Assembly (NCBI GenBank): GCA_023229385.1
Contig: JALNZI010000008.1
Location: forward strand, 1-56,797
DNA: 56,797 nucleotides
Direction of reading: 5' to 3'
DNA from: Candidatus Omnitrophota bacterium
GTDB lineage: Bacteria; Omnitrophota; Gorgyraeia; Gygaellales; Profunditerraquicolaceae
The position numbers were made by a program, and so were the translations under genes. Below are positions 12,449-52,317 of this stretch, in pieces. Numbering within the stretch: position 1 is the first letter of the stretch; each line of letters begins with the position of its first letter. A model generated the notes under the pieces. The model did not search any database. It was given only the letters and a program-made list of their open reading frames with translations, and was not told where the DNA came from.

Positions 12449-12467
12449 GATTTATTTATTTGGATTT

Positions 12468-31477: not shown

Positions 31478-31500
31478 TTTTTCTTTGTTTTTAAATTAGT

Positions 31501-31544
31501 AAAGCAAAATTGCTTTGTGCCTGTACCGGAATCGGACCGGTACA
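31501..31544. promoter_or_regulatory. two adjacent palindromes (possible operator/terminator)
   Basis: AAAGCAAAATTGCTTT (31501-31516) and TGTACCGG-aatcgga-CCGGTACA (31522-31544). They lie between gene 31568-31774 and the start of gene 30851-31477. Confidence 0.35.
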
Positions 31545-31567
31545 AAGAACCGTTCAGGCTAATAAAA

Positions 31568-31774
31568 TTAATTGTTGTCTTCAATCACAGTTATAACGAT
31601 TGTTGAGATAAAACTTATAACCGATATAACTGCTAATATTACAGTTATAATAGAATCATGTGCCGTAAAGAAAGAAATAAGTATCATTCCTAGAAAGCTT
31701 ACTACAAAAGTTATGGCTGTAATGATTACTAACCTGTCGATGTTCTGTTCTTTCGTTGTCATAGTGTTTAACAT
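31568..31774 (-). CDS. small two-TM membrane protein
   Basis: Two TM helices: ITAITFVVSFLGMILISFF and IITVILAVISVISFISTIVITVI. It is the first gene of the leftward gene block. Confidence 0.4.
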   Translation of the reverse strand: MLNTMTTKEQNIDRLVIITAITFVVSFLGMILISFFTAHDSIITVILAVISVISFISTIVITVIEDNN

Positions 31775-31785
31775 AATATTAAGTT

Positions 31786-31814
31786 GTTTATCACTGTTAT
31801 CACTTGCAAATATA
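31786..31814 (-). promoter_or_regulatory. candidate leftward promoter/operator: tandem TGTT(T)ATCAC direct repeat plus TATATTTG (-7-like TAnnTTTG) on the minus strand
   Basis: gtttatcac (31786-94) and tgttatcac (31795-803). The rc of caaatata at 31807-31814 is TATATTTG, 33-40 nt upstream of the ATG at 31774. Confidence 0.3.
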
Positions 31815-31960
31815 TGTAATATTATAATACGTTGTACTCATTAATGCAAAAAAATTTAAAAAAAAATTAAATGTATTATAACGTATTAATACACAGTAAG
31901 TTACAACCTTAAATGACTTATATCATAGTATATATATTACTTAACATAATTAAATAACAC

Positions 31961-32130
31961 TATAAAAAGCAATATAAGGCAATTCACCAGGTAAAAGCCT
32001 AATAACCCAACCTGACTATAATAAAGGCTTAAATAGCCTTATAATGCAAAATAAAGGCTATTCAACCAGGTAACCCATATAATAGTATAACAACCTATAA
32101 AAAGGCAATAAGGCACAATAAAAAATAAAG
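31961..32130. repeat. iteron-like cluster: at least 7 copies of (T)AAGGC/GCCTT plus 2 copies of CCAGGTAA within 170 bp
   Basis: ataaggcaa, caccaggtaaaagcct, taaaggctt, atagcctta, taaaggcta, caaccaggtaac, aaaaggcaa and taaggcac. Confidence 0.5.
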
Positions 32131-32947
32131 AAGCAATATGAGTAAATGGTAAAGTAAAGGTATATATTCATCCATATAGTATAATATAGTAATATATGTT
32201 ATAATACAATAAAAAGAATAAAAATATAGTGAAAAATGTAAAAAAGAATAAAAAAGCCGCGCCCGCTTAGCTTCCACACTTTGTTTCTGTACCACACCAA
32301 TATCACTATGATAAGCTATTCATGTACTAATGATATGCTATTCACAACGAATGTTATACTATACTCTATATATAGTATATATACATACCACTGCACTAGC
32401 TCTGTTCACTGCGATTAGCAGGAATAATTGTTATATATAGTAGTGTGCCGAGGTGAAGGGAAGATCAGGTGAATGTGAATGGCGAAAATGGAAAGAGGTT
32501 TGATGGGCTTGTACCTCTCATAGAATATATAAATTTTTTTGATGAATACAAATTTTATTTATTCATTAAAGGCTTGTTATTATTATTTGACGATTCATAT
32601 TGAAAAAAACGAATAAGTATTATATTATAATATAGTATATATAATAGTAATATGTATATACTATATATGGTAAAAATTGTTTTCATTATGATTTATATAT
32701 TCATTATTATATTCTATTCACTATTTATATTCATTATTATTAATATATTTTATTTACCTTTTTTCATTAATATTATTCATTTTACAATTCATAAAAAAAA
32801 TTTGAAAAAATTTTTTAAGGTTTTCAAAAATTAATATTCATTATTGATTATTTATATTGTATAATAAAAATTTTTATTTAATATTGTTAAATGTGTATAT
32901 TATGTTTATCTATATAAGGATTGCTAAAAAAATTTTATGTTTTTTAT

Positions 32948-39793: not shown

Positions 39794-41422
39794 ATGCCTT
39801 GGAAAATTTCGGATGTGGATTCACATAAAAAAGGATTAACATCAGAACAGAAAAAGAAATGGGTTGCAACAGCAAATGGTGTATTAGCTGATTGTAAAAG
39901 TAAAGGTGAAGATGATTGTGAAGGAAAGGCTATAAGAATAGCTAATGGCACAGTTAAAGTTAATATGGAAATAAGTGTAAATTTTACACAATCTGCATAC
40001 ATACCAAAAATAAGAGAATATTCAGGCAAACAATATTATGTGGTTCCAGTAGTTATGATGGTTGAAGGTGTGCATAATGGAAGTGCTGGACCAATATATC
40101 ACTCAATTGAAGTTTTGTCTGAATGTGTTGCTGATTGGGAATTTAAGCCCGTAACAATACATCATCCAACTAATGATGATGGTGAATTTATTTCAGTACA
40201 AGAAGAAGGTATTTTAGAAAATTGGAGTGTTGGCTTTGTTTCTAATGCACAAATTGAAGATAATAAATTAAAAGCATTAGCTTATTTAGATATACAAAAA
40301 TTATCTGTATTGTCGGATGAAACATTATCTAATATACAGAATGGTAAGATAATGGAAGTTAGTGTTGGTATTTTTACAGATAATGATGAAATTGAAGGTG
40401 AATGGAATGGTGAACATTATACAGCCATAGCTAAAAAGCATAGGCCGGATCATCTCGCTCTTTTGCCCGGAGAGACTGGTGCGTGTTCTGTGAAAGATGG
40501 TTGTGGTGTACGTGTTAATCAACAAATAAGTAATAATAATGAAAAAAAGAAAGGAGAAAAAAATGAAATGAAATTAGAAATAAATAAGGATTTTGTGTAT
40601 GATTTAGCAGAAAAAGGATTAACATTAGTTCCTATTTCTGTAAATTTGATTACAAATAAAGATGGTTTGTTATCAATTTTGAATAAAGTATATGAAGTAT
40701 TACGTGGTATGGGTGATGATCATACATATTATTTTCTTGAGGAAATATTTGATGATGCACTTATTTATGGCAAAAGTACTGAAGGTAATTCAAATTTGTA
40801 TAAACAAACTTATCAAGTAAATGCTGATGGTTCTATTGAATTAACTGGCACACCGGTTAAAGTAAATAGAAAAGTTGAATATGAAATACAAGTGAGTACT
40901 AATTCTAAAAATAAAAAGGATATGTGTGATAAATGCCCTGATAAGGCAAAAGCATTAGTTAATAATGAACGTACAAATTTTGATGATAGTGATCTTTCAT
41001 GGTTGTCAGAATTGACTGAGGATAAGTTGGATAAACTTTTTCCAAAGTTGGCGGTGAATACTAAAACGACACCTACAATTGAAGAAGCTTGGAATATTGT
41101 AAAGACGGGGTACAAAAACCTAGAAGACTATACCAAAATGTTGCCGGATGATATTCGGGGACAGATTGAAACAGGTTTACAGGTTTTTCAAAAGGTAAGG
41201 ACAGATATAATTAAATCTATTGTGGATAATACAGAAGAAGGTGTATGGAAGAATGAAGATTTGGAGAAAATGCCTTTAGATGTATTGCAAAAAATTGAAA
41301 AATCAGTTGTAAAAAAGAATAATACAGTTGCTGATTATTCTGTTATGGGAACTCATGGTAGTCATGAAAAAGAAGGTAAAATAGAACCCATGCCCTTACC
41401 GGGAGTTAAATTTGAAAATTAA
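39794..41422 (+). CDS. putative scaffolding/prohead core protein (DUF2213-like N-domain plus acidic coiled C-half)
   Basis: Position between the Mu-F and capsid genes. DUF2213-like end block RPDHLALLPGETGACSVKDG. Strong SD (taaggagatttaattATG). Confidence 0.4.
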   Translation: MPWKISDVDSHKKGLTSEQKKKWVATANGVLADCKSKGEDDCEGKAIRIANGTVKVNMEISVNFTQSAYIPKIREYSGKQYYVVPVVMMVEGVHNGSAGPIYHSIEVLSECVADWEFKPVTIHHPTNDDGEFISVQEEGILENWSVGFVSNAQIEDNKLKALAYLDIQKLSVLSDETLSNIQNGKIMEVSVGIFTDNDEIEGEWNGEHYTAIAKKHRPDHLALLPGETGACSVKDGCGVRVNQQISNNNEKKKGEKNEMKLEINKDFVYDLAEKGLTLVPISVNLITNKDGLLSILNKVYEVLRGMGDDHTYYFLEEIFDDALIYGKSTEGNSNLYKQTYQVNADGSIELTGTPVKVNRKVEYEIQVSTNSKNKKDMCDKCPDKAKALVNNERTNFDDSDLSWLSELTEDKLDKLFPKLAVNTKTTPTIEEAWNIVKTGYKNLEDYTKMLPDDIRGQIETGLQVFQKVRTDIIKSIVDNTEEGVWKNEDLEKMPLDVLQKIEKSVVKKNNTVADYSVMGTHGSHEKEGKIEPMPLPGVKFEN

Positions 41423-41445
41423 TAATTTATAAAGGAGGTTAAGAA

Positions 41446-41901
41446 ATGGCGAAACACACCATTAAAATTAAAAAGTATTCTGATGTTATTGAAGAATACG
41501 TGAATGGTACAGTATTACCGGTTACGCCTGGAATGCTGATTGAGATAACAAGTGATAATGTAGTACAACCACATTCTACTGAGGATGGTGCAGCTTTGAT
41601 TATGTTTGCTTTGGAAGATGAACTTCAAGGTAAAGGTATTGATGATGCTTATGCCGTAAGTACAGCAAGTCCAATTGTGAAAGTACCAGTTCAATGTTGG
41701 CTACCCGGTCATGGTGATATGGCTTATGCTTTGTTAGCAGACGGTGAAACTGCTGTAATAGGTAGTTGGTTAGCCAGTAATGGCGATGGGAAACTGAAAG
41801 TCAGTACTACGAATCCAATTGGTCAGGCTGTTGAAGCTGTTGATATGAGTGGTTCATCAGGTGCTGATCCTAGTGGTCGTATTATTGTACGTATTAATTA
41901 A
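41446..41901 (+). CDS. small head protein (decoration/auxiliary capsid protein)
   Basis: 151-aa Gly/Ala-rich protein immediately before the major capsid gene, with a strong SD (aaaggaggttaagaaATG). Confidence 0.35.
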   Translation: MAKHTIKIKKYSDVIEEYVNGTVLPVTPGMLIEITSDNVVQPHSTEDGAALIMFALEDELQGKGIDDAYAVSTASPIVKVPVQCWLPGHGDMAYALLADGETAVIGSWLASNGDGKLKVSTTNPIGQAVEAVDMSGSSGADPSGRIIVRIN

Positions 41902-41916
41902 AAGGAGGGGAAAATT

Positions 41917-43002
41917 ATGTTAGATGTTAATGTTGATTTGATGGGTAATGGTGGCGGACAAGGTGAAATTGCCGCTTATATGCAACAGAATAACAGATTA
42001 GACCCTGCTGTATTGCGCCCGTATAGGGGAACTGACGGAAAAGCTTATATTTCAGTTTTTAAAGGAGGTGATCCTAAAAAACCTGAAAATTATTCTGTTA
42101 TTAATGTAAATGAAGCTACACTTCGTCCGTATGAGTGGAGACAATTAGATGAAGCTGTTATTACTATTGCTGAAAATAGGTTAGTTGGAGTAAATGATCT
42201 TATTTCCAATGGACTAACTTATAATTTGGGCAATGCTATGGGTACGACCGTACTTGAAACACATACTATATCAGATGCAATGGAAGCTGATCTTACTATG
42301 GATGCTGTTTCAAGGGCTAAAGGTGATCGTCCTGTTTTTGGAACTAAGTACACTCCAATTCCAATAATTCATGTGGATTATGAAATTAATGCAAGGGTAC
42401 TTGCTTCAAGTCGTTCACTTGGCAATCCTTTGGATACTTCATCTGCTGAACGTGCTGCACGTAAAGTAGCAGAAAAATTGGAAGATATGTTGTTTACTAA
42501 CACTACTTATGGATTTGGTGGTGGAACTATTTATAGTTACATTAACTATCCTGATAGAAGTTTAATATCACTTACTACTTATGGTAATTGGGCTACTAGT
42601 ACTACTACCGGAGCAAAAATCATTGAAAGTGTACTTGCAATGAAACAAGCTTCTATTGATGATAATTATTTTGGTCCTTGGAAGTTGTATGTACCAACGA
42701 ATTTTGAAACTCGTTTGGATAATGATTATGATACGGTAACTCCGGGTACGACTATACGTGAAAGAATATTAAAAATTGGTGGTATTCAATCGGTTACTGT
42801 GGCTGATCATCTTCCTGCTTCAAATGTTTTGTTAGTACAAATGACTAGTAATGTTGTAAGATTAATTCGTGGAATTGGTCTTACAAATGTTGAATGGCAA
42901 ACTGAAGGAAAATTCGTTAATAAATACAAAGTATTAACTATACAAGTTCCTCAAATTCGTTCTGATTATAACGAAAAAACTGGAATTGTACACATGAGTT
43001 AA
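41917..43002 (+). CDS. major capsid protein
   Basis: Size (361 aa), position, the strongest SD in the window (aaaggaggggaaaattATG), and a terminator-like hairpin plus T8 immediately downstream. Confidence 0.6.
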   Translation: MLDVNVDLMGNGGGQGEIAAYMQQNNRLDPAVLRPYRGTDGKAYISVFKGGDPKKPENYSVINVNEATLRPYEWRQLDEAVITIAENRLVGVNDLISNGLTYNLGNAMGTTVLETHTISDAMEADLTMDAVSRAKGDRPVFGTKYTPIPIIHVDYEINARVLASSRSLGNPLDTSSAERAARKVAEKLEDMLFTNTTYGFGGGTIYSYINYPDRSLISLTTYGNWATSTTTGAKIIESVLAMKQASIDDNYFGPWKLYVPTNFETRLDNDYDTVTPGTTIRERILKIGGIQSVTVADHLPASNVLLVQMTSNVVRLIRGIGLTNVEWQTEGKFVNKYKVLTIQVPQIRSDYNEKTGIVHMS

Positions 43003-43009
43003 ATTTAAT

Positions 43010-43032
43010 TCACTAATCAAGTGATTTTTTTT
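43010..43032 (+). terminator. putative terminator/attenuator after the major capsid gene
   Basis: TCACT-aatca-AGTGA hairpin followed by TTTTTTTT. Confidence 0.4.
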
Positions 43033-43059
43033 ATTATATTTGTTTAAAAAGTCTTAATC

Positions 43060-43515
43060 ATGGTAGAACGTAAAAGAATTAGAAACGATGTAACAATTAA
43101 AATGCCTATTGTTGAAGAACAAATAGTTACGGATGAAGAAAAAGAAAAAATTGCTATTGAAGAAAAAGCATTTAATGAAGAAGTAACAACAGTAAAGTCA
43201 GAACTAATTGAACGTAAACCGATACGATGGAAAAAAGTAGGTGGTGGAAGTTTTTCTTTAAATAATCGGTTTATTAAACCGGGACAAATATTTTTAGCAT
43301 TTCCAGAAGAAATACCTGTTCAATTTCGTGATCTTGTTATTCCTTTAGAAGAAAAACCTTTACCTTTAAATATTGAAGAAATTAAAAAGAAATCATCTTA
43401 TAAGTTAGAGGAAAAATCTGATGGATGGGATATTTTAGATTCTTTTGGTAAGGTTTTAAATGAAAAACCAATGGAGAAAGAAGTTGCTGAACGTATTTTA
43501 GTTATGTTACAATGA
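43060..43515 (+). CDS. charged 151-aa protein carrying a roughly 50-aa module also present inside the 1084-aa glycosyltransferase fusion
   Basis: RKPIRWKKVGGGSFSLNNRFIKPGQIFLAFPEEIPVQFRDLVIPLEE here, versus IRKPIRWKKMGNGSFLFNNCYIKKNQVFTAFSEDIPKQFRDVIIPLEE at about 47815-47960. Confidence 0.5.
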   Translation: MVERKRIRNDVTIKMPIVEEQIVTDEEKEKIAIEEKAFNEEVTTVKSELIERKPIRWKKVGGGSFSLNNRFIKPGQIFLAFPEEIPVQFRDLVIPLEEKPLPLNIEEIKKKSSYKLEEKSDGWDILDSFGKVLNEKPMEKEVAERILVMLQ

Positions 43516-44207
43516 TATGGTCCGTACCTAAAATATGGGAAGGTGGTGATGCTTGGATATTAGGTGGTGGACCATCTATTATTGATCAATTTAATATACC
43601 TAAAGAGGTGTCAGAAAAGGTATTATTGAAACAATTACCTTTGTCTGCATATTCAAGTTATATGAAACTTATTCATGATAAACATGTTATAGGTATAAAT
43701 ATAGCTTATTTAATAGGTAATTGGATTGATATTGTATTTTTTGGAGATAAAAATTTTTATCTTACACATAAGGAAGGTTTGTTTAATTTTCCGGGATTAA
43801 AAATTAGCTGTAATCCAGAAGTTGAAAAATGTTTTTGGATAAAATATTTAGCACAAGATAAAGCTAAACATTTAGGAATTACAACAAATCCAAAAATGAT
43901 TAGTTGGAATAAAAATAGTGGAGCTGCTGCTATAAGTTTGGCTGTTCATACAGGAGTTAAAAGAATATTTCTTTTAGGTTTTGATATGAAATTGAATGAT
44001 GCAAATAAACAGCATTGGCATAGTGAATATAAAAATCCACAAGAACCATTAAATTTAAGAAAGTTGCCATTTCAAAGACATTTAACTGGTTTTCCTAGTA
44101 TTTATAAAGATGCAAAGAATCTAAATGTACAAATTTACAATGTAAATTCAGATAGTGCAATTACACAATTTCCATGTATTAATTTAAAAGAAGCTTTGGA
44201 ATTATGA
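43512..44207 (+). CDS. putative Rossmann-type glycosyl/sugar-nucleotide transferase (DUF115/MptE-like)
   Basis: GGDAWILGGGPS...HVIGINIAYL...GAAAISLAVHTGVKRIFLLGFDM. The GxGPS and LGxD blocks are typical of that family. Confidence 0.35.
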   Translation: MIWSVPKIWEGGDAWILGGGPSIIDQFNIPKEVSEKVLLKQLPLSAYSSYMKLIHDKHVIGINIAYLIGNWIDIVFFGDKNFYLTHKEGLFNFPGLKISCNPEVEKCFWIKYLAQDKAKHLGITTNPKMISWNKNSGAAAISLAVHTGVKRIFLLGFDMKLNDANKQHWHSEYKNPQEPLNLRKLPFQRHLTGFPSIYKDAKNLNVQIYNVNSDSAITQFPCINLKEALEL

Positions 44208-45409
44208 AAATTATAAATTGTCCAATTAGTGGTAGTGAAAAAGGGGTAGAATTTCTTAATTTAGGAAAAATACCACTTGTAAATAATTTATGTGATACAA
44301 AACAAGACGCATTAAATTGTGAAAAGTTTTCATTAGCTGTTCAGTTTTTTCCTGAAAGTAAAGTTACTTGTTTAACAGAAACGGTGGATAAGGACAATTT
44401 ATTTCTTCATTATTTGTATCAATCGGGTGTAAATAAGCCTTATTTAGATCATTGTGCTGAAATGTATGATTATTTATCCCATATTATTGATTTTAAAGAC
44501 AAAGATGTTGTATTAGACATTGGTGGAAATGATGGTAGTTTATTAAAAGAATTTAGAAAGGAAAATCAAAATCTTCATTATATAAATGTTGATTGCAGTC
44601 GTAGTTTTATTGATGTTAATCGAGAATCTGGAATTGAATATATTAACGAATATTTTGGTGAAAGTATATCTTTACCATATAAAGCTAAGTTGATTACATC
44701 AACAAATGTATTTCAACACACGGAACCCATACGTTCATTCGTAAAAGGTATTTGTAGGAATTTGTCAAATGAAGGTGTTTGGTGTTTGGAATTTCCTTAT
44801 ATTCTTACAACACTTGCAAATGATAATTATGATCAGGTTTATCATGAACATGTGTATTATTTTTGTTTACAGAATATAATTGATATAACAAAACAAGAAG
44901 GCTTAAAAGTCATTAATGTTTCTTATCATGATATGCACGCTGGAACATTGCGAGTTTTAATTGTGAAAGAATCTTCACGCAGACAACCAGATAATACAAT
45001 ACTTTCTTTTCTTAATTTGGAAAAAACACTAACAAAAGAATACTATTTGAAGTGGGGATCACAAACAACATCGAAAATTAAGCAATATCAGGTAGATATG
45101 AAAAGACTTGTTATGAATGGTGCAAAGGTTGCTTGTTTTGGTGCTGCTGCAAAAGGGTGCATCTTTTTAAATACTTGTGAAATAGATAACACAATGGTAC
45201 AATTTATTATTGATGATACTCCTTTTAAGCAAGGTAAATTTGTTCCGGGAACAGGAATAGAAGTTGTAAGCAGAAAAATATTAAAAGATGTTAAAATAGA
45301 TTATATGATTATTCTTGCTCATAATTTTAAAGATTATATAATAAATTCATTAAAGGGGCAATATAATGGTAAATATATTTTAATGTTTCCTGATATGAAA
45401 ATATTATAA
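44204..45409 (+). CDS. sugar C-methyltransferase family protein (TylC3/EvaC-like; N-terminal Zn-like domain, SAM-binding domain, C-methyltransferase C-terminal domain)
   Basis: NCPISGSEKGVEFLNLGKIPLVNNL resembles CxxCGSxxLxxVLDLGxQPLAN. Motif I is VVLDIGGNDGSLL. The C-terminal domain is CFGAAAKGCIFLN...IDDTPFKQGKFVPGTGIEVVS...MIILAHNFKDYI. Confidence 0.65.
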   Translation: MKIINCPISGSEKGVEFLNLGKIPLVNNLCDTKQDALNCEKFSLAVQFFPESKVTCLTETVDKDNLFLHYLYQSGVNKPYLDHCAEMYDYLSHIIDFKDKDVVLDIGGNDGSLLKEFRKENQNLHYINVDCSRSFIDVNRESGIEYINEYFGESISLPYKAKLITSTNVFQHTEPIRSFVKGICRNLSNEGVWCLEFPYILTTLANDNYDQVYHEHVYYFCLQNIIDITKQEGLKVINVSYHDMHAGTLRVLIVKESSRRQPDNTILSFLNLEKTLTKEYYLKWGSQTTSKIKQYQVDMKRLVMNGAKVACFGAAAKGCIFLNTCEIDNTMVQFIIDDTPFKQGKFVPGTGIEVVSRKILKDVKIDYMIILAHNFKDYIINSLKGQYNGKYILMFPDMKIL

Positions 45410-45432
45410 TATTGTGAAATAAATATAATTAT

Positions 45433-46290
45433 ATGCTAACAGCTAGCAATATCGAAAAAATTTGTATTGTCACAGTATTTGATAGACATTATAAAGAAGC
45501 AGGGAAAACTTTGTTTAATTCAATCAGAAGGCATACAAATTGTGATGGAATAGATTTTAAAGTTATTACATCAGATGAGGAAGTATTAAATGAATGGGGA
45601 AAGGATAATTGTTATTTTGTAACGGATAATATTAAAAATAGGTATAAGAATGTTCAATATTCTAAGGATTTACCTATTGAGCGATATGCTTTATCATGGT
45701 ACAGATATGAAATATTCAATATGACTGATTACGATAGAGTAATATGTATTGATTCTGATTGTATATGTGTTCAAGATATTAGTTATTTATTTAGTGAAGA
45801 ATTAAATCAGTATGATCTTATTTCTGTTGAAGATCATTTTGTATCAAAAATACTACCTAATTTATATTCTAAATTAGAAAAGAATGGTTGGAACTTTACA
45901 AATTTATACAAAAGGGTTTCTTTAAAACAAGTTGATATTCAACCTGCTGTACTTGTAATTAATAAGAATGTCATAAATAGTATATGGTATAATGAGTTAT
46001 TAGCTTATGCTAATAATACGGGTTTTACTTATTCTATTGATCAAGGTATTCTAAATGATTTTATTTATCAAAAAAATATAAATATCAAATTACTACCGTT
46101 GGAATGGAATTATCAAGACCTTTATGCTATTCGTTGTTCAGAACTTGCAGTAGTTAATCCAATTATAATTCATTGTCAAGAATCCAAACCTTTTAAACTT
46201 GTTAGAAAAAATGTAGATGTACGAATACAAAAATTTTATGATCAATGGTGGTATGAATATGATTATGCCAAATCATTGAAAACAACAACA
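45433..46290 (+). repeat. internal duplication, copy 1 of the GT8-like domain
   Basis: About 60-70% nt identity to 46294-47110. It includes an exact 42-bp match at 45775-45816 (gatattagttatttatttagtgaagaattaaatcagtatgat). Confidence 0.8.
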
Positions 46291-48687
46291 AGGATGAAAG
46301 GTAAGATATGTATAACTACTACATTTGATTATAACTATAAACATGCAGGACAAACTTTGCTTAGTTCAATCAGAAGACATACAAATTGTGATGGAATTGA
46401 TTTTAAAATAATTACTAACGATCCAAAGGTTGTGGCTGAGTTTGGAGCAGAAAACTGTCATATTATTACTCCTGAAATACAAGCCAATTATAATAACGTG
46501 AAATATATTACTGATATTCCTAAAGAACAATATTATTCTTCGTGGTATCGTTATGAGATGTTTAATTTTGAGGGATATGATCGGGTAATATGTATTGATT
46601 CTGATTGCATTTGTATTGAAGATATTAGTTATTTATTTAGTGAAGAATTAAATCAGTATGATTTAATATCAACAGAGGACATGATTGTTTCTCACATGTT
46701 TAAACAACATATTCCTTCGTTAGAGAAGAACTACGGATTAAATTTAGTAGGTTTACGACGTAGAATAGCTGCTGGTCAGGTTGATATTCAACCGGCATTA
46801 CTTGTTGCTAATAAAAAAATTGTAAATAATAAATGGTATAAGCAATTAATAACTTATGCCAATACAACAAATCATACTTATTCTATTGACGAAGGTATCT
46901 TAAATGATTTTATTTATTTGAAAAGATTGAACATTAAGATATTACCAATGGAATGGAATTATATGGATACTTATGGTGCTCAAATATTGGAACTTCCTGA
47001 ACCTAAAAAACCTTTTATTGTGCATTGTCAAGAATCTAAACCTTTTAAAAAGGATAAAGCAGATGTTAATGTGCGAATACACAAATGGCATAATAAATGG
47101 TGGGAAGAAGCTAATCATATAAAATATTCAACTATTGTTGCTATTATTGTTTGGAATAGATTTGAAAATCTAAAATTATGGGTAAATGCTTGGAATCAAT
47201 GTATTCAAAGTGATGTTAAGTTAATAGTTGTTCACAATCTTGAAAGTGACAATAATAGATATTCTCAGTTATGTAAAGATAACGGAATAATGTATATTCC
47301 AAGAGAAAATAAAGGTTTTGATATTGGGGCTTTTCAAGATGTATGTAAAGAAAGATTGGAAGGTTTTCCTAATGATTGGGAAAATTTAATCTGGATTACT
47401 GATGATTGTATTCCAATGGCAAAAGATTTTGTTGAACAATTTTTAAAATGTTTACCAAAAATACCTTGTTATGAAATATCTCAGGAAGTAAAAACTCATG
47501 TTAGAACTACCGGATTTTTAGTCACCAAAGAAATATCTAAAAAACTTGTTTTTCCAAAAGACCCGATAGAGAATAGGGAAGATTGCTATCAATTTGAACA
47601 TAAAGGCTTTTTACAAGTTAAAAATATGTATGAACAGATTGTTAGTATGGGAAAACAACCAGTAATGGTTAATAAGGATTTAAGGTTATCTCCATTATGG
47701 GATTCAGGAGTAAGATGGCAACTTAAATTAATGGGTAAACATGAAGCTATTTTTCCATTTATTAAAATAAATGTTGAACCGATAAAAGTAGATGTTAAAC
47801 TAGTTGAAGCAGAATTACCTATAAGAAAACCAATTCGATGGAAAAAAATGGGTAATGGTTCCTTTTTATTTAATAATTGTTATATTAAAAAAAATCAAGT
47901 ATTTACTGCATTTTCTGAAGATATTCCAAAACAGTTTCGTGATGTAATTATTCCATTAGAAGAAATAGTTTCGGAAATTAAAAAAGTTATTCCAGTTGAA
48001 CCGGTTAAATTAAATAGTAAACCGATTATATATAATGTTTTGGATGAGTTGGCTATTAAGCATAAATCAGATAAGTCTTCTAGGTATCATAATTACGCAG
48101 TAAAATATGATAAAATATTATTTCCGTTTAGAGAATCATTTTCATCAATTTTAGAAATTGGTGTATCACAGGGACAGTCTACAAAAATGTGGACCGATTA
48201 TTTTGAGAATGCTACTATTCACGGTGCAGATATTGAAAAAGGTTCTAAAATTTGTGAATCATATTCTAATAGAGTAAAATTTCATGAACTTGACCAACGA
48301 GATTTAGCACAACTTAAAAATCTTGAACAATTTTCTCCATTTGATTTTGTAATAGATGATGGTAATCATTTTTGGTTTGAACAAATTCTTACATTTGAGG
48401 CTTTGTTTCCTTATGTTAGAAAAGGAGGAATATATATTGTTGAAGATACTACTACTTCTTATTGGGAGGAATATAAAAATAATCCGATTTCACCCGTAGA
48501 ATATTTTAAGACATTGGTAGATGAAGTTCATCTTAAAGGGGCAAGAGGAAATATTCCTATAAATCCCCCGCAGGAATTTGGTAATTGGGAAAAAGGGTGG
48601 CATCGTAGGGAAGATTGTTTTGAATCAGTACCTTTATTTGAATCAATTCAATTTATGAATGGTTTTATTGTAATTTATAAAAGATAA
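45433..48687 (+). CDS. 1084-aa multidomain fusion: GT8-like + GT8-like + GT-A (GT2-like) + shared 50-aa module + TylF/MycF-like O-methyltransferase
   Basis: The two GT8 units each carry the donor-site DxD block VICIDSDCIC(V/I)(Q/E)DI and the HxxGxxKPF block (IIHCQESKPF and IVHCQESKPF). The GT-A block is IVAIIVWNRFENLKLWVNAW...LIWITDDCIP. The O-methyltransferase has motif I ILEIGVSQGQSTKMW, then DFVIDDGNH and GGIYIVEDT. Confidence 0.7.
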   Translation: MLTASNIEKICIVTVFDRHYKEAGKTLFNSIRRHTNCDGIDFKVITSDEEVLNEWGKDNCYFVTDNIKNRYKNVQYSKDLPIERYALSWYRYEIFNMTDYDRVICIDSDCICVQDISYLFSEELNQYDLISVEDHFVSKILPNLYSKLEKNGWNFTNLYKRVSLKQVDIQPAVLVINKNVINSIWYNELLAYANNTGFTYSIDQGILNDFIYQKNINIKLLPLEWNYQDLYAIRCSELAVVNPIIIHCQESKPFKLVRKNVDVRIQKFYDQWWYEYDYAKSLKTTTRMKGKICITTTFDYNYKHAGQTLLSSIRRHTNCDGIDFKIITNDPKVVAEFGAENCHIITPEIQANYNNVKYITDIPKEQYYSSWYRYEMFNFEGYDRVICIDSDCICIEDISYLFSEELNQYDLISTEDMIVSHMFKQHIPSLEKNYGLNLVGLRRRIAAGQVDIQPALLVANKKIVNNKWYKQLITYANTTNHTYSIDEGILNDFIYLKRLNIKILPMEWNYMDTYGAQILELPEPKKPFIVHCQESKPFKKDKADVNVRIHKWHNKWWEEANHIKYSTIVAIIVWNRFENLKLWVNAWNQCIQSDVKLIVVHNLESDNNRYSQLCKDNGIMYIPRENKGFDIGAFQDVCKERLEGFPNDWENLIWITDDCIPMAKDFVEQFLKCLPKIPCYEISQEVKTHVRTTGFLVTKEISKKLVFPKDPIENREDCYQFEHKGFLQVKNMYEQIVSMGKQPVMVNKDLRLSPLWDSGVRWQLKLMGKHEAIFPFIKINVEPIKVDVKLVEAELPIRKPIRWKKMGNGSFLFNNCYIKKNQVFTAFSEDIPKQFRDVIIPLEEIVSEIKKVIPVEPVKLNSKPIIYNVLDELAIKHKSDKSSRYHNYAVKYDKILFPFRESFSSILEIGVSQGQSTKMWTDYFENATIHGADIEKGSKICESYSNRVKFHELDQRDLAQLKNLEQFSPFDFVIDDGNHFWFEQILTFEALFPYVRKGGIYIVEDTTTSYWEEYKNNPISPVEYFKTLVDEVHLKGARGNIPINPPQEFGNWEKGWHRREDCFESVPLFESIQFMNGFIVIYKR
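46294..47110 (+). repeat. internal duplication, copy 2 of the GT8-like domain
   Basis: Exact 42-bp match at 46621-46662, with parallel protein blocks HAGQTLLSSIRRHTNCDGIDFKIIT and EAGKTLFNSIRRHTNCDGIDFKVIT. Confidence 0.8.
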
Positions 48688-48688
48688 A

Positions 48689-49384
48689 ATGCTTGTATTA
48701 ATCACACCAACAGGAAGTCGTCCAAAGCAATTTGAATTATGTATGCAATGGATGAAGCAACAAACTTATACAGGTAAAGTTGTTTGGATTGTTATAGATG
48801 ATTGTTTTCCTAAAACAATAGATATTCTTAATGAAGATTTTCGTGAAAATTGGTTAATAATTAAAAAATACCCAAAACCTTTATGGGAAATTGGGAAAAA
48901 TACACAGGGTAGAAATTTAAAAATTGCTATTGATACTATTAATGCTTTTCCTAAAGATTGGGTTGAAACAATTTATATAATTGAAGATGATGATTATTAT
49001 AAACCTGAATATTTACAAACAATGAAAGACCGTTTGAAAGGGTTTACATTAGCAGGTGAGGTTAAAACAGTATATTATAACATTAAGTATAAAATGTTTA
49101 AGGAAATGGCTAATACAAGCCATGCAAGCCTATTTCAAATATGCTTTACAGCTGATGCTTTACCTATACTTGAAAAATATCTAAATGATGGATTTATTGA
49201 TATTAATTTTTGTAAAAATATAAAGAATATTAATTTATTTGAAGCTAATAAATTAGCAATAGGTATAAAAGGTTTACCTGGAAGACCTGGAATAGGAATT
49301 GGGCATAGACAAAAAGGAATTTTAGATATAAATTTAAACAAGTTAAAAGAATTAATTGGTGAAGATTATAAATATTATTTATAA
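48689..49384 (+). CDS. putative GT-A-fold glycosyltransferase
   Basis: N-terminal LITPTGSRPKQFELCMQWMKQQ (GT-A beta1-alpha1) and an acidic EDDDYY (DxD-like) block. Confidence 0.4.
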   Translation: MLVLITPTGSRPKQFELCMQWMKQQTYTGKVVWIVIDDCFPKTIDILNEDFRENWLIIKKYPKPLWEIGKNTQGRNLKIAIDTINAFPKDWVETIYIIEDDDYYKPEYLQTMKDRLKGFTLAGEVKTVYYNIKYKMFKEMANTSHASLFQICFTADALPILEKYLNDGFIDINFCKNIKNINLFEANKLAIGIKGLPGRPGIGIGHRQKGILDINLNKLKELIGEDYKYYL

Positions 49385-50073
49385 TGCTAAGAAAAATACA
49401 ACATAATCCTATTTTCATAACCGGAGTTGAACGTTCGGGTAGTACTATTATTGCAAGAATTTTAGATTTGTGTAATGTAAGTTCTGGAAATTGTAATAAT
49501 ATGTTTGAAAATGTTATTATTAATGAATTTAATACAGATTATTTGAAGAATTTTTCATTAACTTTTCCTAAAACAGCAGATATTGACATACCAATAAGAT
49601 GGAAAGGTGCAGTTGATGGTGTTTTATTGGTTGAGAATTGCCTTGACAAGCCCTATATGGTTAAATCTGCTATGTTAGCAAGGTTATGGCCAATATGGAA
49701 TTATGCTTATCCTGATGCCAAATGGTTAATAGTTCGTAGGCGTACAGGAGACGTAATACAGTCTTGTTTAAAAACAGGTTATATGAAAACTTTTAAATCT
49801 GCTGAAAATTTATTATCTTTGGGTCTTACAAAAGAAGCAGAAGGTTGGCTTTGGTGGATACATCAATACGAAAATAAATTTGTTGAAATGATTAAAGCTG
49901 GTTTAAATTGTAGAATTATATGGCCTGAAAGAATGGTTACTGGCAATTATGAACAAATGTATGAAACAATTGAATGGTTAGGTTTAAAATGGAATGAACA
50001 AATACCAGAAATTATTGATCCATTATTAAGTAAAAGTAGGGAGGGTATTATATATGAGAACAACAGTAGATGA
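49384..50073 (+). CDS. sulfotransferase family protein
   Basis: The 5'-PSB-like motif is PIFITGVERSGSTIIARIL (compare PxFIxGxxRSGTT). The 3'-PB-like motif is AKWLIVRRRTGDVIQS (RxxxDxxxS). Confidence 0.6.
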   Translation: MLRKIQHNPIFITGVERSGSTIIARILDLCNVSSGNCNNMFENVIINEFNTDYLKNFSLTFPKTADIDIPIRWKGAVDGVLLVENCLDKPYMVKSAMLARLWPIWNYAYPDAKWLIVRRRTGDVIQSCLKTGYMKTFKSAENLLSLGLTKEAEGWLWWIHQYENKFVEMIKAGLNCRIIWPERMVTGNYEQMYETIEWLGLKWNEQIPEIIDPLLSKSREGIIYENNSR

Positions 50074-50425
50074 TGTAATTGATATTTTAGATAATACAGA
50101 ATTAGATGATTCTGTTATTGAAAAATATATTAATAGTGCAAATGTATTTGTTACAGGTACATTAGGTACAACTTTGAGTGTGTCTATTCTTACAGAAATT
50201 GAAAAATGGATGGCTGCACACATGATTGTTTCAACTCGTGAACGTATGTCTAAAGATGAAGGTGCTGGTGGGGCTTATATTAAATGGTCTGGTCAATGGG
50301 GTATGGGTTTAAACTTCACACCTTATGGTCAAATGGCAGTTGCTTTGGATACCACAGGAGTATTAAATAACATAGCAAAGGGTAAATCTAATGCTTGGGT
50401 TCATGCTATACCTAATTTTGATTAA
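50054..50425 (+). CDS. head-tail connector/adaptor protein (gp6-like)
   Basis: Size, position and an SD of gtagggagggtattatatATG. It has the SVSILTEIEKWMAAHMI helix typical of head-tail adaptors. Confidence 0.45.
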   Translation: MRTTVDDVIDILDNTELDDSVIEKYINSANVFVTGTLGTTLSVSILTEIEKWMAAHMIVSTRERMSKDEGAGGAYIKWSGQWGMGLNFTPYGQMAVALDTTGVLNNIAKGKSNAWVHAIPNFD

Positions 50426-50427
50426 AA

Positions 50428-50832
50428 ATGACAACTTATAAAGGTATAGAAAAAGTTGCAAAACGATTTTGTGTTGAAACTTGTGTTTATTGGGGTAATC
50501 CGGTAAATGATGGTTATGGTGGCTATACTTTTGATGATCCAATTGAAATAAAATGTAGATGGGAAAATAAAATGGAATTTAATATAGGTTGGATGTCAAC
50601 TGGTTTTCCTGCTAATTTACTTTTATCAAAAGCTTCTGTATTAGTATTACAAGATGTAGATTTGGAAGGTTATATGTATCTTGGAACATTAGTAAGTTTA
50701 AATGCTTATGATACTGCAAAACCTATTGAAATAAATGGTGCTTATCCAATACATAGGTTTGATAAGATTCCTATGGTACGAAAAACAGATGAATTTGTTA
50801 GAATTGCTTGGTTGTATGATCAAGGTAAATAA
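50428..50832 (+). CDS. putative head closure/neck protein
   Basis: Assigned from position in a conserved siphovirus gene order. Confidence 0.3.
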   Translation: MTTYKGIEKVAKRFCVETCVYWGNPVNDGYGGYTFDDPIEIKCRWENKMEFNIGWMSTGFPANLLLSKASVLVLQDVDLEGYMYLGTLVSLNAYDTAKPIEINGAYPIHRFDKIPMVRKTDEFVRIAWLYDQGK

Positions 50833-50835
50833 ATT

Positions 50836-51369
50836 GTGAATATGTCAAATCAAGGATTTTTTATAAAGAATACAAGAATACCTTCACTTGGTAAAGGTGG
50901 AACTAAGTTTGGATTCTATTGTAGAATAACTGGGTATGAAAATGTAGAACGTGGTTTGCTTATTCAAATAGCTAAAATGAAAAAGCGAACAAAGATAGGC
51001 TTACATGAAGCTGTTGAACATTTACATAAAGACATTCAAGAAGGACCATATCCACAAGAACCTTGGGGAGAAGATAGGTATGTGGGTGGTGTTATGGTAC
51101 ATAAGGGAGGAACTTTAAGTAATTCTTGGGAAACAAAAGATGTTGGTGGTGTAGACAGTCCAGAAATAATTTTTGGTTATAATATGAATAAAGCTCCTTA
51201 TGCTTGGTATGTACATGAAATGACTAGTCCACCTTATGGTGATGTACAATGGACAAAAGATGTTAGACCAAATGCAGGTCCTCAATGGCTTACAGTTGGA
51301 ATACAAAGAAATAAACCTATTATGTTATCTATTATTGCTATGAATGCAAGTGTGGAGGGAAAAATATAA
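50836..51369 (+). CDS. putative neck/tail completion protein
   Basis: Assigned from position. Confidence 0.3.
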   Translation: MNMSNQGFFIKNTRIPSLGKGGTKFGFYCRITGYENVERGLLIQIAKMKKRTKIGLHEAVEHLHKDIQEGPYPQEPWGEDRYVGGVMVHKGGTLSNSWETKDVGGVDSPEIIFGYNMNKAPYAWYVHEMTSPPYGDVQWTKDVRPNAGPQWLTVGIQRNKPIMLSIIAMNASVEGKI

Positions 51370-51767
51370 TGAATGCAAGTGCTGTTGATATTAAACAGAT
51401 TATTGAATATTACTATGCTGAAGATAGTTATGTTGGTGATTTATATCCTATATTTATAGGGAAAGAACCAGCATCACCAGTTAATACTATTTCTATTTTT
51501 GAAACAATGGGTTATCATCAATTAACATTTAACAAATGTGAAATATATGAGTATCCATCTATTCAAATTAGAATAAGATCATCTTCTTACTTAGAAGGTT
51601 GGCAGATGATTGCTGATATAAAGGAAATATTACATGGCCGGGCAAGTGAGACATGGAATGGTACTTTATATACTTTGATTCGTTGTGCAGGTGGTCCGGC
51701 ATTATTGGATTTTGACAAAGATCAAAGAGTGCGTTTTATATGTAATTTTAACATTCAGAGACGATGA
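51369..51767 (+). CDS. putative tail terminator protein
   Basis: Position immediately before the major tail protein gene. Confidence 0.3.
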   Translation: MNASAVDIKQIIEYYYAEDSYVGDLYPIFIGKEPASPVNTISIFETMGYHQLTFNKCEIYEYPSIQIRIRSSSYLEGWQMIADIKEILHGRASETWNGTLYTLIRCAGGPALLDFDKDQRVRFICNFNIQRR

Positions 51768-51794
51768 TTTGTCTTAATAAAAGGAGGTAAAATT

Positions 51795-52250
51795 ATGGGT
51801 TGTGCTTTAGATAGTAGTAATGCTATTGCTGGTGTTGGTACAATTTTTCATAGATGGGATGATGTTTCATCATGGGTTGAATTGGCAGAAATTAATTCAA
51901 TTTCTGGTCCGTCTATGTCACGAGAAACGATTGATGTAACATCACTAAGTTCAACAGGGGGCTTTAAAGAGTTCATTGCTGGATTTCGTGACGGTGGTAC
52001 TGTAAATTTAACAATGAACTTTACAAGGGCTACATTTTCTATTATTTATGCGGATTTTGAAGATGATTCTCCACATTTTTATGAAATTGTATTACCTGAT
52101 GATGTAAATACTTCATTTGAATTTTGTGGTTTGGTAACAGAATGCCCGTTGGATATTCCAACAGATGATAAGATAACTGTAAGTGTTACTATTAAAATAT
52201 CTGGAAGGGTTGCTATGAATAGTGGTGGAAGTGCTGCACCTTCATCCTAA
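51795..52250 (+). CDS. major tail protein (TP901-1-like)
   Basis: Size of 151 aa, an SD of aaaggaggtaaaattATG, and Ser/Thr/Gly-rich beta-type composition. It lies immediately upstream of the chaperone pair and tape measure gene. Confidence 0.55.
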   Translation: MGCALDSSNAIAGVGTIFHRWDDVSSWVELAEINSISGPSMSRETIDVTSLSSTGGFKEFIAGFRDGGTVNLTMNFTRATFSIIYADFEDDSPHFYEIVLPDDVNTSFEFCGLVTECPLDIPTDDKITVSVTIKISGRVAMNSGGSAAPSS

Positions 52251-52266
52251 TAATTAAAATAATAAA

Positions 52267-52288
52267 GCTAATCAAGCAATTTTTTATT
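52267..52288 (+). terminator. weak terminator-like element sharing the CTAATCAAG loop motif with the element after the capsid gene
   Basis: GCT-aatca-AGC followed by aaTTTTTTaTT. The stem is only 3 bp. Confidence 0.25.
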
Positions 52289-52317
52289 CATAAAAATAAA
52301 TTTAAAAATTAATCAAA

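Follow-up and report, generated by a model that had tools for sequence, protein, structure and literature searches.

An island of about 7 kb (43512-50073) lies between the major capsid protein (MCP) and head-tail connector genes of a tailed phage genome, the 56.8-kb window (the whole stretch of 56,797 nucleotides that was analyzed). One of its genes (44204..45409, plus strand) encodes a predicted sugar 3-C-methyltransferase of 401 aa (C-MT), assigned by its ORF, Pfam, PDB phmmer, AF2 and Foldseek to a zinc-less clade of the TylC3/MtmC/TcaB9 family. The island also encodes a sialyltransferase-like glycosyltransferase (GT), a GT8-GT8-methyltransferase fusion, a GT2-like protein and a sulfotransferase-like protein. 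The flanking glycosyltransferases and two other transferases were absent from an earlier, sequence-only reading of this DNA. Island genes overlap or abut, there is no internal terminator, and the island is apparently transcribed together with the late head-tail operon. All six island products are predicted to be soluble. The same arrangement recurs in loci L006-L008. On an unrelated (type-B) backbone, C-MT, GT2s, a CmcI-like methyltransferase and a u231-like GT2 are found beside head protease and portal genes. Clustered GT and methyltransferase genes amid virion structural genes, as in mycobacteriophage virion-glycosylation cassettes, occur in the window, in L006-L008 and, near head genes, in the type-B loci.

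Directly upstream of the island is the gene for an HK97/encapsulin-like MCP (41917..43002, plus strand), recognized by PF19774, PF04454, phrog_771 and phrog_264 and 36% identical to the annotated MCP of Brevundimonas phages. A Ser/Thr-rich MCP tail is the glycosylation site in mycobacteriophages; no obvious tail of this kind is present at the C-terminus of the window MCP. A 151-aa protein with no function assigned, p151 (43060..43515, plus strand), always adjoins the MCP in type-A phages. A homolog search with p151 returned only 15 small unannotated clusters, and its AF2 model, moderate in quality (pLDDT 73), has no PDB fold match at E<0.5. Residues 41-98 of p151 form a 58-aa module that is repeated in the 1084-aa fusion enzyme of the island.

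The GT upstream of C-MT (43512..44207, plus strand) is a 231-aa sialyltransferase-like or MptE-like (DUF115) putative enzyme, as judged from phrog_4603 (E=1e-29), a weak PF01973 match and conserved synteny. A PDB sequence search with it gave nothing significant. Its stop overlaps the C-MT start by 4 nt. Downstream of C-MT, the 1084-aa multidomain enzyme (45433..48687, plus strand) consists of GT8 domains at aa 11-253 and ~293-515, an unassigned region at ~540-786 for which nothing significant was found in a PDB sequence search, the p151-like module at 787-844, and a Methyltransf_24/CmcI-like SAM methyltransferase domain at ~870-1016. A second 231-aa protein (48689..49384, plus strand) is GT2-like. 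The window copy has no Pfam match; its type-B orthologs, 46-50% identical, score as GT2 (GT-A), and the protein co-travels with C-MT in two phage backbones. The 229-aa sulfotransferase-like protein (49384..50073, plus strand) is conserved in L006-L008, with a PF13469 match of 33.1 bits limited to the N-terminal PAPS-loop region (aa 9-28).

The minus arm of the genome is a replication module with RecA, clamp loader, split PolA, UDG-exo, DnaB, primase, SNF2 and RuvC. No lysogeny genes were seen among the window ORFs, the window has no tRNAs, and there is no nucleotide-level match to cultured phages. Since this contig is a phage genome, its NCBI label 'Candidatus Omnitrophica' probably reflects a binning artefact. 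TerL, at only 35-38% identity, points weakly to Flavobacteriia phages; strong Shine-Dalgarno sites precede the structural genes, and a Bacteroidota host fits poorly with these.

A C-methyltransferase with a former zinc site

The C-MT ORF runs from ATG to stop over exactly the coordinates given above, and its start position is common to more than 100 homologs of 398-402 aa. The domains occur in family order, a small N-terminal domain followed by the SAM-binding Rossmann domain and the C-terminal PF08484. In Pfam scans PF08484 (Methyltransf_14) matches with E=2.7e-27 and the class I methyltransferase models PF13489 and PF08242 exceed their cut-offs. PF08421, the 'putative zinc binding domain', reaches 24.5 bits, below its gathering score of 31.3 bits. 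PDB phmmer aligns the protein over its full length (aa 3-393) with MtmC (4rv9, a chain deposited as 'D-mycarose 3-C-methyltransferase') at E=2.5e-43. TcaB9 (E=5e-33) and KijD1 (E=5e-30) are also matched full-length, and at the sequence level all of these similarities are far beyond chance. The AF2 model (pLDDT 95.9, pTM 0.92) superimposes on MtmC, TcaB9 and KijD1 with TM 0.92-0.95 and rmsd ~2 Å over ~410 columns in Foldseek, where the next folds score only ~0.34. Judged by sequence and model, C-MT belongs over its whole length to the NDP-hexose 3-C-methyltransferase family and to no other. Profile, sequence-to-structure and fold searches thus all agree with the TylC3-family sugar C-methyltransferase proposed in the sequence-only reading, and none points to an unrelated methyltransferase family.

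That reading had also described the C-terminal domain and SAM motif I as well preserved, and here too it holds. The motifs that it quoted were all found, CPISGS (aa 6-11), DIGGNDG (aa 105-111), GAAAKG, DDTPFKQGKFVPGTGIEVVS and ILAHNF. The C-terminal domain (aa 244-396; 44933..45391, plus strand), defined by PF08484, contains GAAAKG and DDTPFKQGK, and its K342 is invariant in a 78-sequence alignment. The class I SAM-binding Rossmann domain (aa 97-237; 44492..44914, plus strand), placed by Pfam and by mapping onto TcaB9, carries DIGGNDG, H172 and Y213-H-E215-H216. The residues probed by mutagenesis in TcaB9 (Y76, H181, Y222, E224 and H225, taken from PDB entry titles) align to Y70, H172, Y213, E215 and H216 of C-MT. 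All five are present in 120/120 clade members and in at least 92% of 150 family representatives; the same values apply to the SAM motif D/E-x-G-x-N-D-G, met here as DIGGNDG. Selection acts on the gene: at least 120 clusters (90% identity) have 70% identity or more and lengths of 396-406 aa, and the N-domain is conserved like the C-domain (mean pairwise identity in the clade 71.5% versus 73.0%).

The N-terminal domain (aa 6-67; 44219..44404, plus strand) is a former zinc ribbon, as seen from the sub-threshold PF08421 match, column statistics and a modelled structure with pLDDT 95-98. In this family the four-cysteine zinc site is structural, not catalytic. Aligning 150 family representatives placed the ligand columns at C-MT positions 6, 9, 49 and 52. 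Among representatives with a residue there, cysteine occupies these columns in 134/135, 123/135, 126/142 and 126/142 sequences, respectively. C-MT has C/S/F/S in place of C/C/C/C, so that three of four ligands are gone. The site had been called 'partly degenerate', with CPISGS where relatives have CxxCGS. CPISGS is indeed there, but the loss goes deeper, with one ligand of four left, and by its residues the site is essentially abolished. On the sequences compared, the loss is a trait fixed across the whole clade and not decay specific to the window gene; the clade occurs in phages, Anaerolineaceae, Bacteroidota MAGs and one Pseudomonadota MAG. Three cysteines of the N-domain, C30, C39 and C56, are particular to the clade. 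An obligatory substitute site made of C6/C30/C39/C56 was considered and rejected, since C39 and C56 are lost independently: variants at positions 30, 39 and 56 are CVC (six), CAC (three), CCS (seven) and CCT (three), and C39 and C56 are never lost together. Wider zinc-less relatives have not retained these cysteines, so a replacement site is not evident. C-MT is best described as a putative active SAM-dependent NDP-hexose 3-C-methyltransferase without structural zinc, a view that we hold, jointly with the host substrate and virion glycan proposed below, with moderate confidence.

Zinc-less relatives and the probable supply of substrate

Zinc-less C-MTs also occur in cells. They have C-S/T-F/Y-S at the former zinc site, are 44-71% identical and keep the catalytic residues. 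A quick neighbor-joining tree, which carries no support values, sets the zinc-less sequences apart from two zinc-containing rooting sequences. In a Pseudomonadota MAG (locus L033) the zinc-less C-MT is followed by a 280-aa ORF and then by RmlB, RmlA, RmlC and RmlD (E=5.6e-87, 1.9e-73, 6e-68 and 1.1e-92). An RmlD-like domain is fused to each of two zinc-less relatives (P0126 and P0127), and a GT2 to another (P0121); fusions with RmlD, RmlC or a dehydratase are seen in the C-MT family. The closest cellular homologs, 67-71% identical, are those of Anaerolineaceae. One of these (locus L024) lies beside Wzx, GT2, GT4 and a Dlt-like set, and this is a surface-polysaccharide locus. No rml genes were found within +/-10 kb of the Anaerolineaceae C-MTs, and no phage genes near the chromosomal zinc-less C-MTs of L033 and L024. 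In phages, the best database match to C-MT is 44% identical and comes from a 735-kb uncultured megaphage.

Pfam scans of essentially all window ORFs detected no sugar-nucleotide biosynthesis genes, and local phmmer with RmlB, RmlC and RmlD probes had no match in either the window or 17 related phage loci. Sugar-nucleotide genes hidden among ORFs of 341-414 aa on the minus arm were considered and rejected, that arm being the replication module; its ORFs left without assignment have no Pfam match and no phmmer match to the three probes. The earlier observation that no NDP-sugar biosynthesis genes accompany C-MT is thereby borne out. Genes for a nucleotidyltransferase, 4,6-dehydratase, epimerase or 4-ketoreductase are all lacking from the phage, and therefore a host rhamnose-type pathway would have to supply the 4-keto substrate. 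Of the two ways out offered by the sequence-only reading, use of the host sugar-nucleotide pool follows from the lack of pathway genes in the window and the 17 loci. Action on a different acceptor is disfavoured by sequence comparison, since the catalytic-pocket residues are invariant and zinc-less relatives have rmlBACD links or RmlD-like fusion domains.

Possible destinations of the branched sugar

The reading to which we incline, with rather more belief than doubt, is that C-MT C-methylates an NDP-4-keto-6-deoxyhexose made by the host, and that the product enters a phage-built glycan, probably located on the virion. Substrate, nucleotide, use of a host reductase and acceptor are what we infer. 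By analogy with solved relatives, C-MT would bind an NDP-4-keto-6-deoxyhexose, most likely dTDP-4-keto-6-deoxy-D-glucose, which RmlB produces, or the form epimerised from it by RmlC. H216 would take the proton from C-3 and so generate an enolate, as its counterpart H225 of TcaB9 reportedly does in the work of Bruender and Holden from 2012, and the SAM methyl group would then pass to C-3. A host RmlD-like reductase, assumed to accept the methylated product, would probably finish the sugar. The resulting branched 3-C-methyl-6-deoxyhexose would be used by the sialyltransferase-like, GT8 and GT2-like transferases of the phage, and the glycan would also be O-methylated and possibly sulfated. A virion protein would be the likeliest acceptor because the island products are predicted to be soluble and the genes, apparently co-transcribed with late genes, come directly after the MCP; the coat would resemble that of mycobacteriophages. 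The branched sugar would thereby gain a destination that the sequence-only reading had not considered, a GT/methyltransferase island in the virion-morphogenesis operon.

The same enzymology could instead place the glycan on the host envelope, at the inner membrane face, on LPS core, O-antigen or capsule intermediates. Receptors would be altered, and either superinfection would be blocked or progeny would escape trapping on debris. GT8 enzymes are typically LPS-core glycosyltransferases (PF01501), the closest cellular C-MT homologs sit in surface-polysaccharide loci, and the virion proteins show no recognisable acceptor motif. We nevertheless think an envelope target unlikely: among the six predicted soluble products of the island there is no flippase, polymerase, initiating phosphoglycosyltransferase or membrane protein, no lysogeny genes accompany it in the window, and in two unrelated backbones it lies within the late head-tail operon, where timing is poor for surface remodelling. 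DNA is a very improbable destination. Phage GT-A enzymes, GT8-like ones included, do hypermodify 5hmC DNA with diverse glycans, but in the known systems the GT genes are found together with those of 5mYOX/TET or ThyS-type enzymes and C5-methyltransferases (bioRxiv 10.1101/2023.12.21.572611). Pfam finds none of these families in the window ORFs, and the island is in the structural and not the replication module. The DNA-hypermodification reading was rejected for the missing 5mYOX, ThyS and C5-methyltransferase genes.

Other alternatives concern the enzyme itself. C-MT could be bifunctional like MtmC, with SAM directing C-methylation and NADPH 4-keto reduction, so that a separate ketoreductase is unneeded. 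MtmC is the best match in sequence and fold, no reductase occurs in any phage locus, and MtmC is a documented 4-ketoreductase/3-C-methyltransferase whose activity is set by the bound cofactor (PMC10269268). However, both MtmC activities use the same unmethylated substrate, TDP-4-keto-2,6-dideoxyglucose, and MtmTIII reduces the methylated product (PMC10269268); therefore bifunctionality would leave the branched sugar unfinished. C-MT is also only ~25% identical to MtmC, and the presence of RmlD in fusion with or next to zinc-less relatives implies that reduction normally calls for a separate enzyme, all of which makes a second activity improbable. Loss of three of four zinc ligands, with PF08421 under its gathering threshold, might also mark a protein that has lost its activity or taken on another role, such as a scaffold that binds sugar nucleotides or a non-sugar methyltransferase. 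That is hard to credit for a clade in which the SAM motif and all probed catalytic residues are invariant, the N-domain is as well conserved as the C-domain and is modelled with high pLDDT, and members occur in rml operons.

A wider version of the virion-glycan reading is more tentative, and we hold it to be rather doubtful as a whole. It combines a phage-specific virion glycan, a one-enzyme host hijack, a mobile cassette and a docking module. Widespread environmental siphoviruses would coat their virions with a 3-C-methyl-6-deoxyhexose glycan, O-methylated and possibly sulfated. A zinc-independent C-MT, the sole pathway enzyme carried, would intercept host dTDP-4-keto-6-deoxyhexose, and host RmlC and RmlD would complete the sugar in a minimal 'one-enzyme hijack'. 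Unrelated phage backbones and polysaccharide loci of cells (Anaerolineaceae) may have exchanged the cassette, and the 58-aa module shared by p151 and the 1084-aa enzyme could dock the enzyme on the capsid.

C-MT falls clearly within a well-studied family, and the surprise is moderate. If the proposals are true, the branched-chain sugar chemistry of antibiotic and O-antigen pathways is also found in phages, where strikingly few genes are devoted to it. Experimental proof of virion glycosylation has come so far mainly from mycobacteriophages; the phenomenon would extend to abundant uncultured phages with more elaborate glycans, and a coat of this kind could change how receptors, defence systems, grazers or immune systems recognize the virion. 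The zinc-less clade is a natural experiment suggesting that the four-cysteine zinc site is dispensable for the TylC3-type fold. A small, highly conserved phage enzyme could suit glyco-engineering as a zinc-free C-methyltransferase.

Comparison with known systems

The closest known enzyme in sequence and fold is MtmC of Streptomyces argillaceus (4rv9/4rvd), a TDP-4-keto-D-olivose 3-C-methyltransferase/4-ketoreductase. It shares with C-MT the three-domain layout (TM 0.94-0.95, rmsd 2.0 Å) and the Y..Y, H, Y-x-E-H active site. The two differ at the zinc site, CxxC...CxxC in MtmC (CRMCGA, SCRSC) and C-S-F-S in the phage protein, and identity is only the ~25% given above. MtmC works in the mithramycin deoxysugar pathway with dedicated pathway genes, whereas the phage C-MT has none. 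TcaB9 (Micromonospora chalcea; 3ndi) and KijD1 (Actinomadura kijaniata; 5t64) are dTDP-sugar C-3'-methyltransferases with TM 0.92-0.93 to C-MT. In work of the Holden laboratory both reportedly act on 3-amino-2,3,6-trideoxy-4-keto sugars in nitrosugar pathways. Unlike the phage enzyme, both are zinc-containing proteins of actinomycete secondary metabolism. The zinc-less cellular C-MTs differ from it in being chromosomal, accompanied by rmlBACD or by Wzx/GT2/GT4 and a Dlt-like set.

Clustered phage GTs with a methyltransferase are also known from mycobacteriophages. In cluster O and others, cassettes of tandem GT genes and a methyltransferase gene are described as acting on capsid and tail-tube proteins (Freeman et al. 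2023, cited in PMC11600133). In that description no sugar-nucleotide synthesis genes are reported for the cassettes, implying host pools, and their methyltransferase is an O-methyltransferase, with no sugar C-methyltransferase described (PMC11600133). Phage lineage, hosts and GT families differ between these cassettes and the island. Virion glycosylation has been experimentally shown in the mycobacteriophages, while we infer it for the window phage.

A further parallel is A064R of chlorovirus PBCV-1, a multidomain glycosyltransferase-methyltransferase that builds the capsid glycan. PBCV-1 is, unlike the window phage, a eukaryotic giant virus, and no C-methyltransferase is involved. Compared by description, A064R is like the 1084-aa enzyme in its logic, two GT domains with a C-terminal sugar methyltransferase. 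A PBCV-1 major-capsid-protein glycosyltransferase is a structural match of GT8-like phage GTs (bioRxiv 10.1101/2023.12.21.572611).

The C-methyltransferase and its altered zinc site

The sugar C-methyltransferase gene lies exactly where the sequence-only reading placed it, at 44204..45409 (+). It encodes 401 amino acids, and its ATG overlaps the stop codon of the preceding gene. Pfam detects the C-methyltransferase C-terminal domain PF08484 (E=2.7e-27) along with the class I SAM-methyltransferase models PF13489 and PF08242; PF08421, the 'putative zinc binding domain', is sub-threshold at 24.5 bits (cut-off 31.3 bits). Among PDB sequences the protein aligns end to end with its closest solved relative, MtmC (4rv9, deposited as 'D-mycarose 3-C-methyltransferase'; E=2.5e-43), and with TcaB9 (E=5e-33) and KijD1 (E=5e-30). 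Superposed on these three, an AlphaFold2 model made from 78 homologs (mean pLDDT 95.9, pTM 0.92) reaches TM 0.92-0.95 at an rmsd of ~2 A; after them come generic class I methyltransferase folds at TM ~0.34. Pfam, PDB sequences and fold agree on the family first proposed, and none points to an unrelated methyltransferase family. At E<=1e-3 the family has 10,727 cluster representatives, of which 1,035 reach E<=1e-30.

Five residues altered in TcaB9, according to PDB entry titles (Y76F, H181N, Y222F, E224Q, H225N), correspond to Y70, H172, Y213, E215 and H216 of the phage enzyme in the PDB sequence alignment (chain index = residue number + 2). Their individual catalytic roles are putative. To count conservation, 120 close homologs, which form a zinc-less clade, were aligned by MAFFT with 150 representatives of 50%-identity clusters of the family. 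The five residues and the SAM motif N109-D110-G111 are present in 120/120 clade members, and the same eight positions are at least 92% conserved across the 150 representatives.

The four zinc-ligand columns of the family fall at positions 6, 9, 49 and 52, where representatives with a residue there have Cys in 134/135, 123/135, 126/142 and 126/142 cases. The phage enzyme has C, S, F and S. Its close homologs have C at position 6 (119/120), S or T at position 9 (117/120), and F and S at positions 49 and 52 (both 120/120). The site had been called partly degenerate; degenerate it is, and 'partly' understates the change, as only one of the four ligands is left and the loss of the other three is fixed clade-wide. 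The C-S/T-F/Y-S pattern is also found in distant relatives (P0121-P0130, 36-57% identity) and in cellular proteins from Anaerolineaceae/Brevefilum (63-71%), five Bacteroidota MAGs and one Pseudomonadota MAG (42-45%). Homologs at 32% identity or less are nearly all C-C-C-C where the ligand columns are covered, the one exception being L056 (CSFS at 27%). A quick NJ tree, calculated without support values, sets the zinc-less sequences apart from the two zinc-containing sequences used as root; the phage copies cluster tightly together, Anaerolineaceae being their nearest neighbour.

The clade has other conserved cysteines, C30 (119/120), C39 (111/120) and C56 (110/120), the last standing where the family-wide residue is Gln. 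They were considered as an obligatory substitute metal site and rejected, because their losses never coincide and wider zinc-less relatives do not keep them. Judged by mean pairwise identity within the clade (N-domain 71.5%, C-terminal domain 73.0%, Rossmann core 79.8%) and by the predicted structure, the N-domain shows no decay. Its pLDDT of 95-98 has to be read knowing that AlphaFold2 leaves metals unmodelled and may take the fold from homologs that do contain zinc.

The best phage-database match is in a 735-kb uncultured megaphage (LR756501.1, 326020-327222; 44% identity, full length), a genome that matches the enzyme at two places. Synechococcus phages S-SKS1 and DSL-LC02 have homologs at 26-28%. 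Sugar C-methyltransferases thus recur across very different phage groups.

Substrate class and cellular relatives

MtmC uses TDP-4-keto-2,6-dideoxy-D-glucose, and carries out C-3 methylation with SAM or C-4 reduction with NADPH; the methylated sugar is finished by a separate reductase, MtmTIII (PMC10269268). Fusion partners among the family representatives include RmlD, RmlC and 4,6-dehydratase/epimerase domains, which at the level of predicted domains tie the family to 6-deoxyhexose pathways. Fusions also occur within the zinc-less clade: P0126 and P0127 have an RmlD-like domain, and P0121 has a GT2. The latter is the same GT2 that is encoded just upstream of the C-methyltransferase in phages with a different backbone (phmmer 1e-25 to 1e-30), so that P0121 is a fusion of neighbouring genes. 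Most informative on substrate class is a Pseudomonadota MAG (L033): downstream of its zinc-less homolog (44% identity) come a 280-aa ORF and, after that, RmlB (PF16363, 5.6e-87), RmlA (PF00483, 1.9e-73), RmlC (PF00908, 6e-68) and RmlD (PF04321, 1.1e-92).

In seven Anaerolineaceae/Brevefilum MAGs, in one case on a 1.0-Mb contig, the closest cellular homologs (67-71% identity) are encoded at a conserved chromosomal locus of native GC content, and no phage genes were seen near them. In their neighbourhood are a Wzx-type flippase, a GT2 and a GT4, together with a class I methyltransferase and a Dlt-like acylation set. On the 1.0-Mb contig (L024, 1297-9702) the gene sits beside that set (MBOAT, a DHHW protein, an AMP-binding enzyme and a 78-aa carrier-sized ORF) and a DRL-type oxidoreductase, adjoining the Wzx and GT genes. 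This looks like an uncharacterised locus for an acylated, methylated surface polysaccharide.

A putative NDP-4-keto-6-deoxyhexose substrate is strongly supported by these sequence comparisons. The suggestion that the enzyme acts on a different acceptor is unlikely given the MtmC substrate, the fusions to 6-deoxyhexose enzymes, the rml linkage and the polysaccharide-locus relatives. As the earlier reading had noted, no NDP-sugar biosynthesis genes accompany the enzyme: Pfam scans of essentially all window ORFs gave no nucleotidyltransferase, dehydratase, epimerase, reductase or aminotransferase, and RmlD, RmlC and 4,6-dehydratase probes cut from the fusion proteins found no match in six-frame translations of the window and 17 related loci. 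The substrate must therefore come from the host sugar-nucleotide pool, one of the two options originally offered.

The phage genome and its glycan island

The window (56.8 kb, ~29% GC) is a phage contig with two arms. The GC-skew sign flips at ~31500-32900, where transcription of the replication arm (-) diverges from that of the structural arm (+). Genes for replication and recombination make up the minus arm (~1-31.5 kb). They encode RuvC, RecA and a clamp-loader ATPase, a family-A DNA polymerase in split form that has a UDG-like/exonuclease part, DnaB-like and SNF2 helicases, and a primase-like protein. The polymerase (7068-10290, -) consists of an ORF with UDG-superfamily and 3'-5' exonuclease domains (9046-10290) and one with the polymerase domain (7068-8453), separated by a 94-aa ORF (8455-8739). 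Three consecutive ORFs of 341, 378 and 347 aa (10290-13511, -) have zero Pfam matches, as do those at 3708-4853 (381 aa) and 29067-30302 (411 aa).

The plus arm carries siphovirus-type morphogenesis genes in this order: large terminase, portal, GH108 lysin, a Mu-F-like protein, a 542-aa protease-like protein, a 151-aa scaffold-sized ORF, the major capsid protein (MCP, 41917-43002), the island, head-tail connectors, tail terminator, tail tube, a 144-aa ORF, tail T protein and tape-measure protein. The 542-aa protein (39794-41422) has a PF09979/phrog_760 region and weak similarity to head-maturation proteases. Homology of the MCP to other phages begins only at ~residue 63-67, indicating an N-terminal extension. 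The terminase is closest to those of Flavobacteriia phages, at only 35-38% identity. Within 41400-52300, the scaffold-sized ORF, MCP, tail tube and a few other structural genes have strong AAGGAGG-type Shine-Dalgarno sites, which the six island genes lack. Despite the terminase affinities, this usage fits a Bacteroidota host poorly. The NCBI label 'Omnitrophica' is probably a binning artefact.

The C-methyltransferase gene belongs to a capsid-adjacent glycan island of about 7 kb, placed between the MCP and connector genes. It is preceded by a 151-aa protein, p151 (43060-43515), and a 231-aa sialyltransferase-like/MptE-like protein (43512-44207; phrog_4603 1e-29, PF01973 weak). Following it are a 1084-aa enzyme (45433-48687) with two GT8 domains, an unassigned region and a Methyltransf_24/CmcI-like methyltransferase, a 231-aa protein, u231 (48689-49384), whose orthologs in the other phage type score as GT2, and a 229-aa sulfotransferase-like protein (49384-50073). 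Every product is predicted soluble. Neighbouring genes overlap or abut (-4, -4, +23, +1, -1 nt), with no credible plus-strand terminator in the run, and are probably translationally coupled. Together with the missing Shine-Dalgarno sites, this suggests low expression of the enzymes and high expression of structural proteins.

In three phages of the same kind (L006-L008) the gene order is kept and the C-methyltransferase is 80-83% identical; the large GT is replaced by other GT/MT combinations, including a PF04989-like rhamnosyl O-methyltransferase and GT92/GT2. In phages with an unrelated backbone (L009-L016, L018) the enzyme (68-77% identical) travels with GT2s, a u231-like GT2 and a CmcI-like methyltransferase encoded as a separate protein, which shares 33% identity with aa 869-1005 of the 1084-aa enzyme; the cassette lies directly upstream of the genes for head protease and portal. 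L004 and P0051 represent a third setting, which has in addition a DegT fragment, TOD1/MUCI70 and more methyltransferases. Within this mobile glycan cassette, which is housed in virion-morphogenesis modules, no element is better conserved than the C-methyltransferase.

Similarity of the 229-aa ORF to Sulfotransfer_3 is confined to the PAPS-binding loop, the first 20 positions of the profile. The ORF is kept at the island end in L006-L008, and this hints at glycan sulfation by the phage. A 58-aa module (IRWKK-G-GSF..NN..IK..Q.F.AF.E.IP.QFRD..IPLEE) occurs in p151 (43180-43353) and at residues 787-844 of the 1084-aa enzyme (47791-47964), with 62% identity (E=9e-22). Its HMM matches only p151 orthologs of the window's phage type and the window's own 1084-aa enzyme, not the L007 and L008 orthologs of the latter. 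No PDB fold match was found for this module, which may be a docking or targeting element.

Proposed route and alternatives

We somewhat favour a route in which a host-made sugar is C-methylated by the phage and built into a phage glycan. Host enzymes would supply an NDP-4-keto-6-deoxyhexose, the phage enzyme would methylate it at C-3, and a host reductase would complete the branched sugar, possibly after epimerisation. Phage GTs would then build a glycan containing it, which other island enzymes would O-methylate and perhaps sulfate. The acceptor is most probably a virion protein, because the genes have a late-operon position beside the MCP, the enzymes are soluble, and there is no flippase or polymerase. 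That the island instead modifies envelope glycans of the host is unlikely. It is more doubtful still that the enzyme is bifunctional like MtmC and supplies the missing reduction; by the MtmC precedent such bifunctionality would not reduce the methylated product. Glycan hypermodification of DNA is very improbable, its defining partners (5mYOX/ThyS and a C5-MT) being absent from the window, and there is equally little reason to regard the C-methyltransferase as inactive or repurposed, a reading contradicted by its invariant catalytic residues.

The enzyme is of a known kind in a variant form, and its viral context is suggestive but not unprecedented. According to PMC11600133, which cites Freeman et al. 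2023, cluster O mycobacteriophages have tandem GT genes downstream of an O-methyltransferase gene, and these GT genes modify capsid and tail-tube proteins. The route proposed for the island of this phage parallels that GT/O-methyltransferase cassette.
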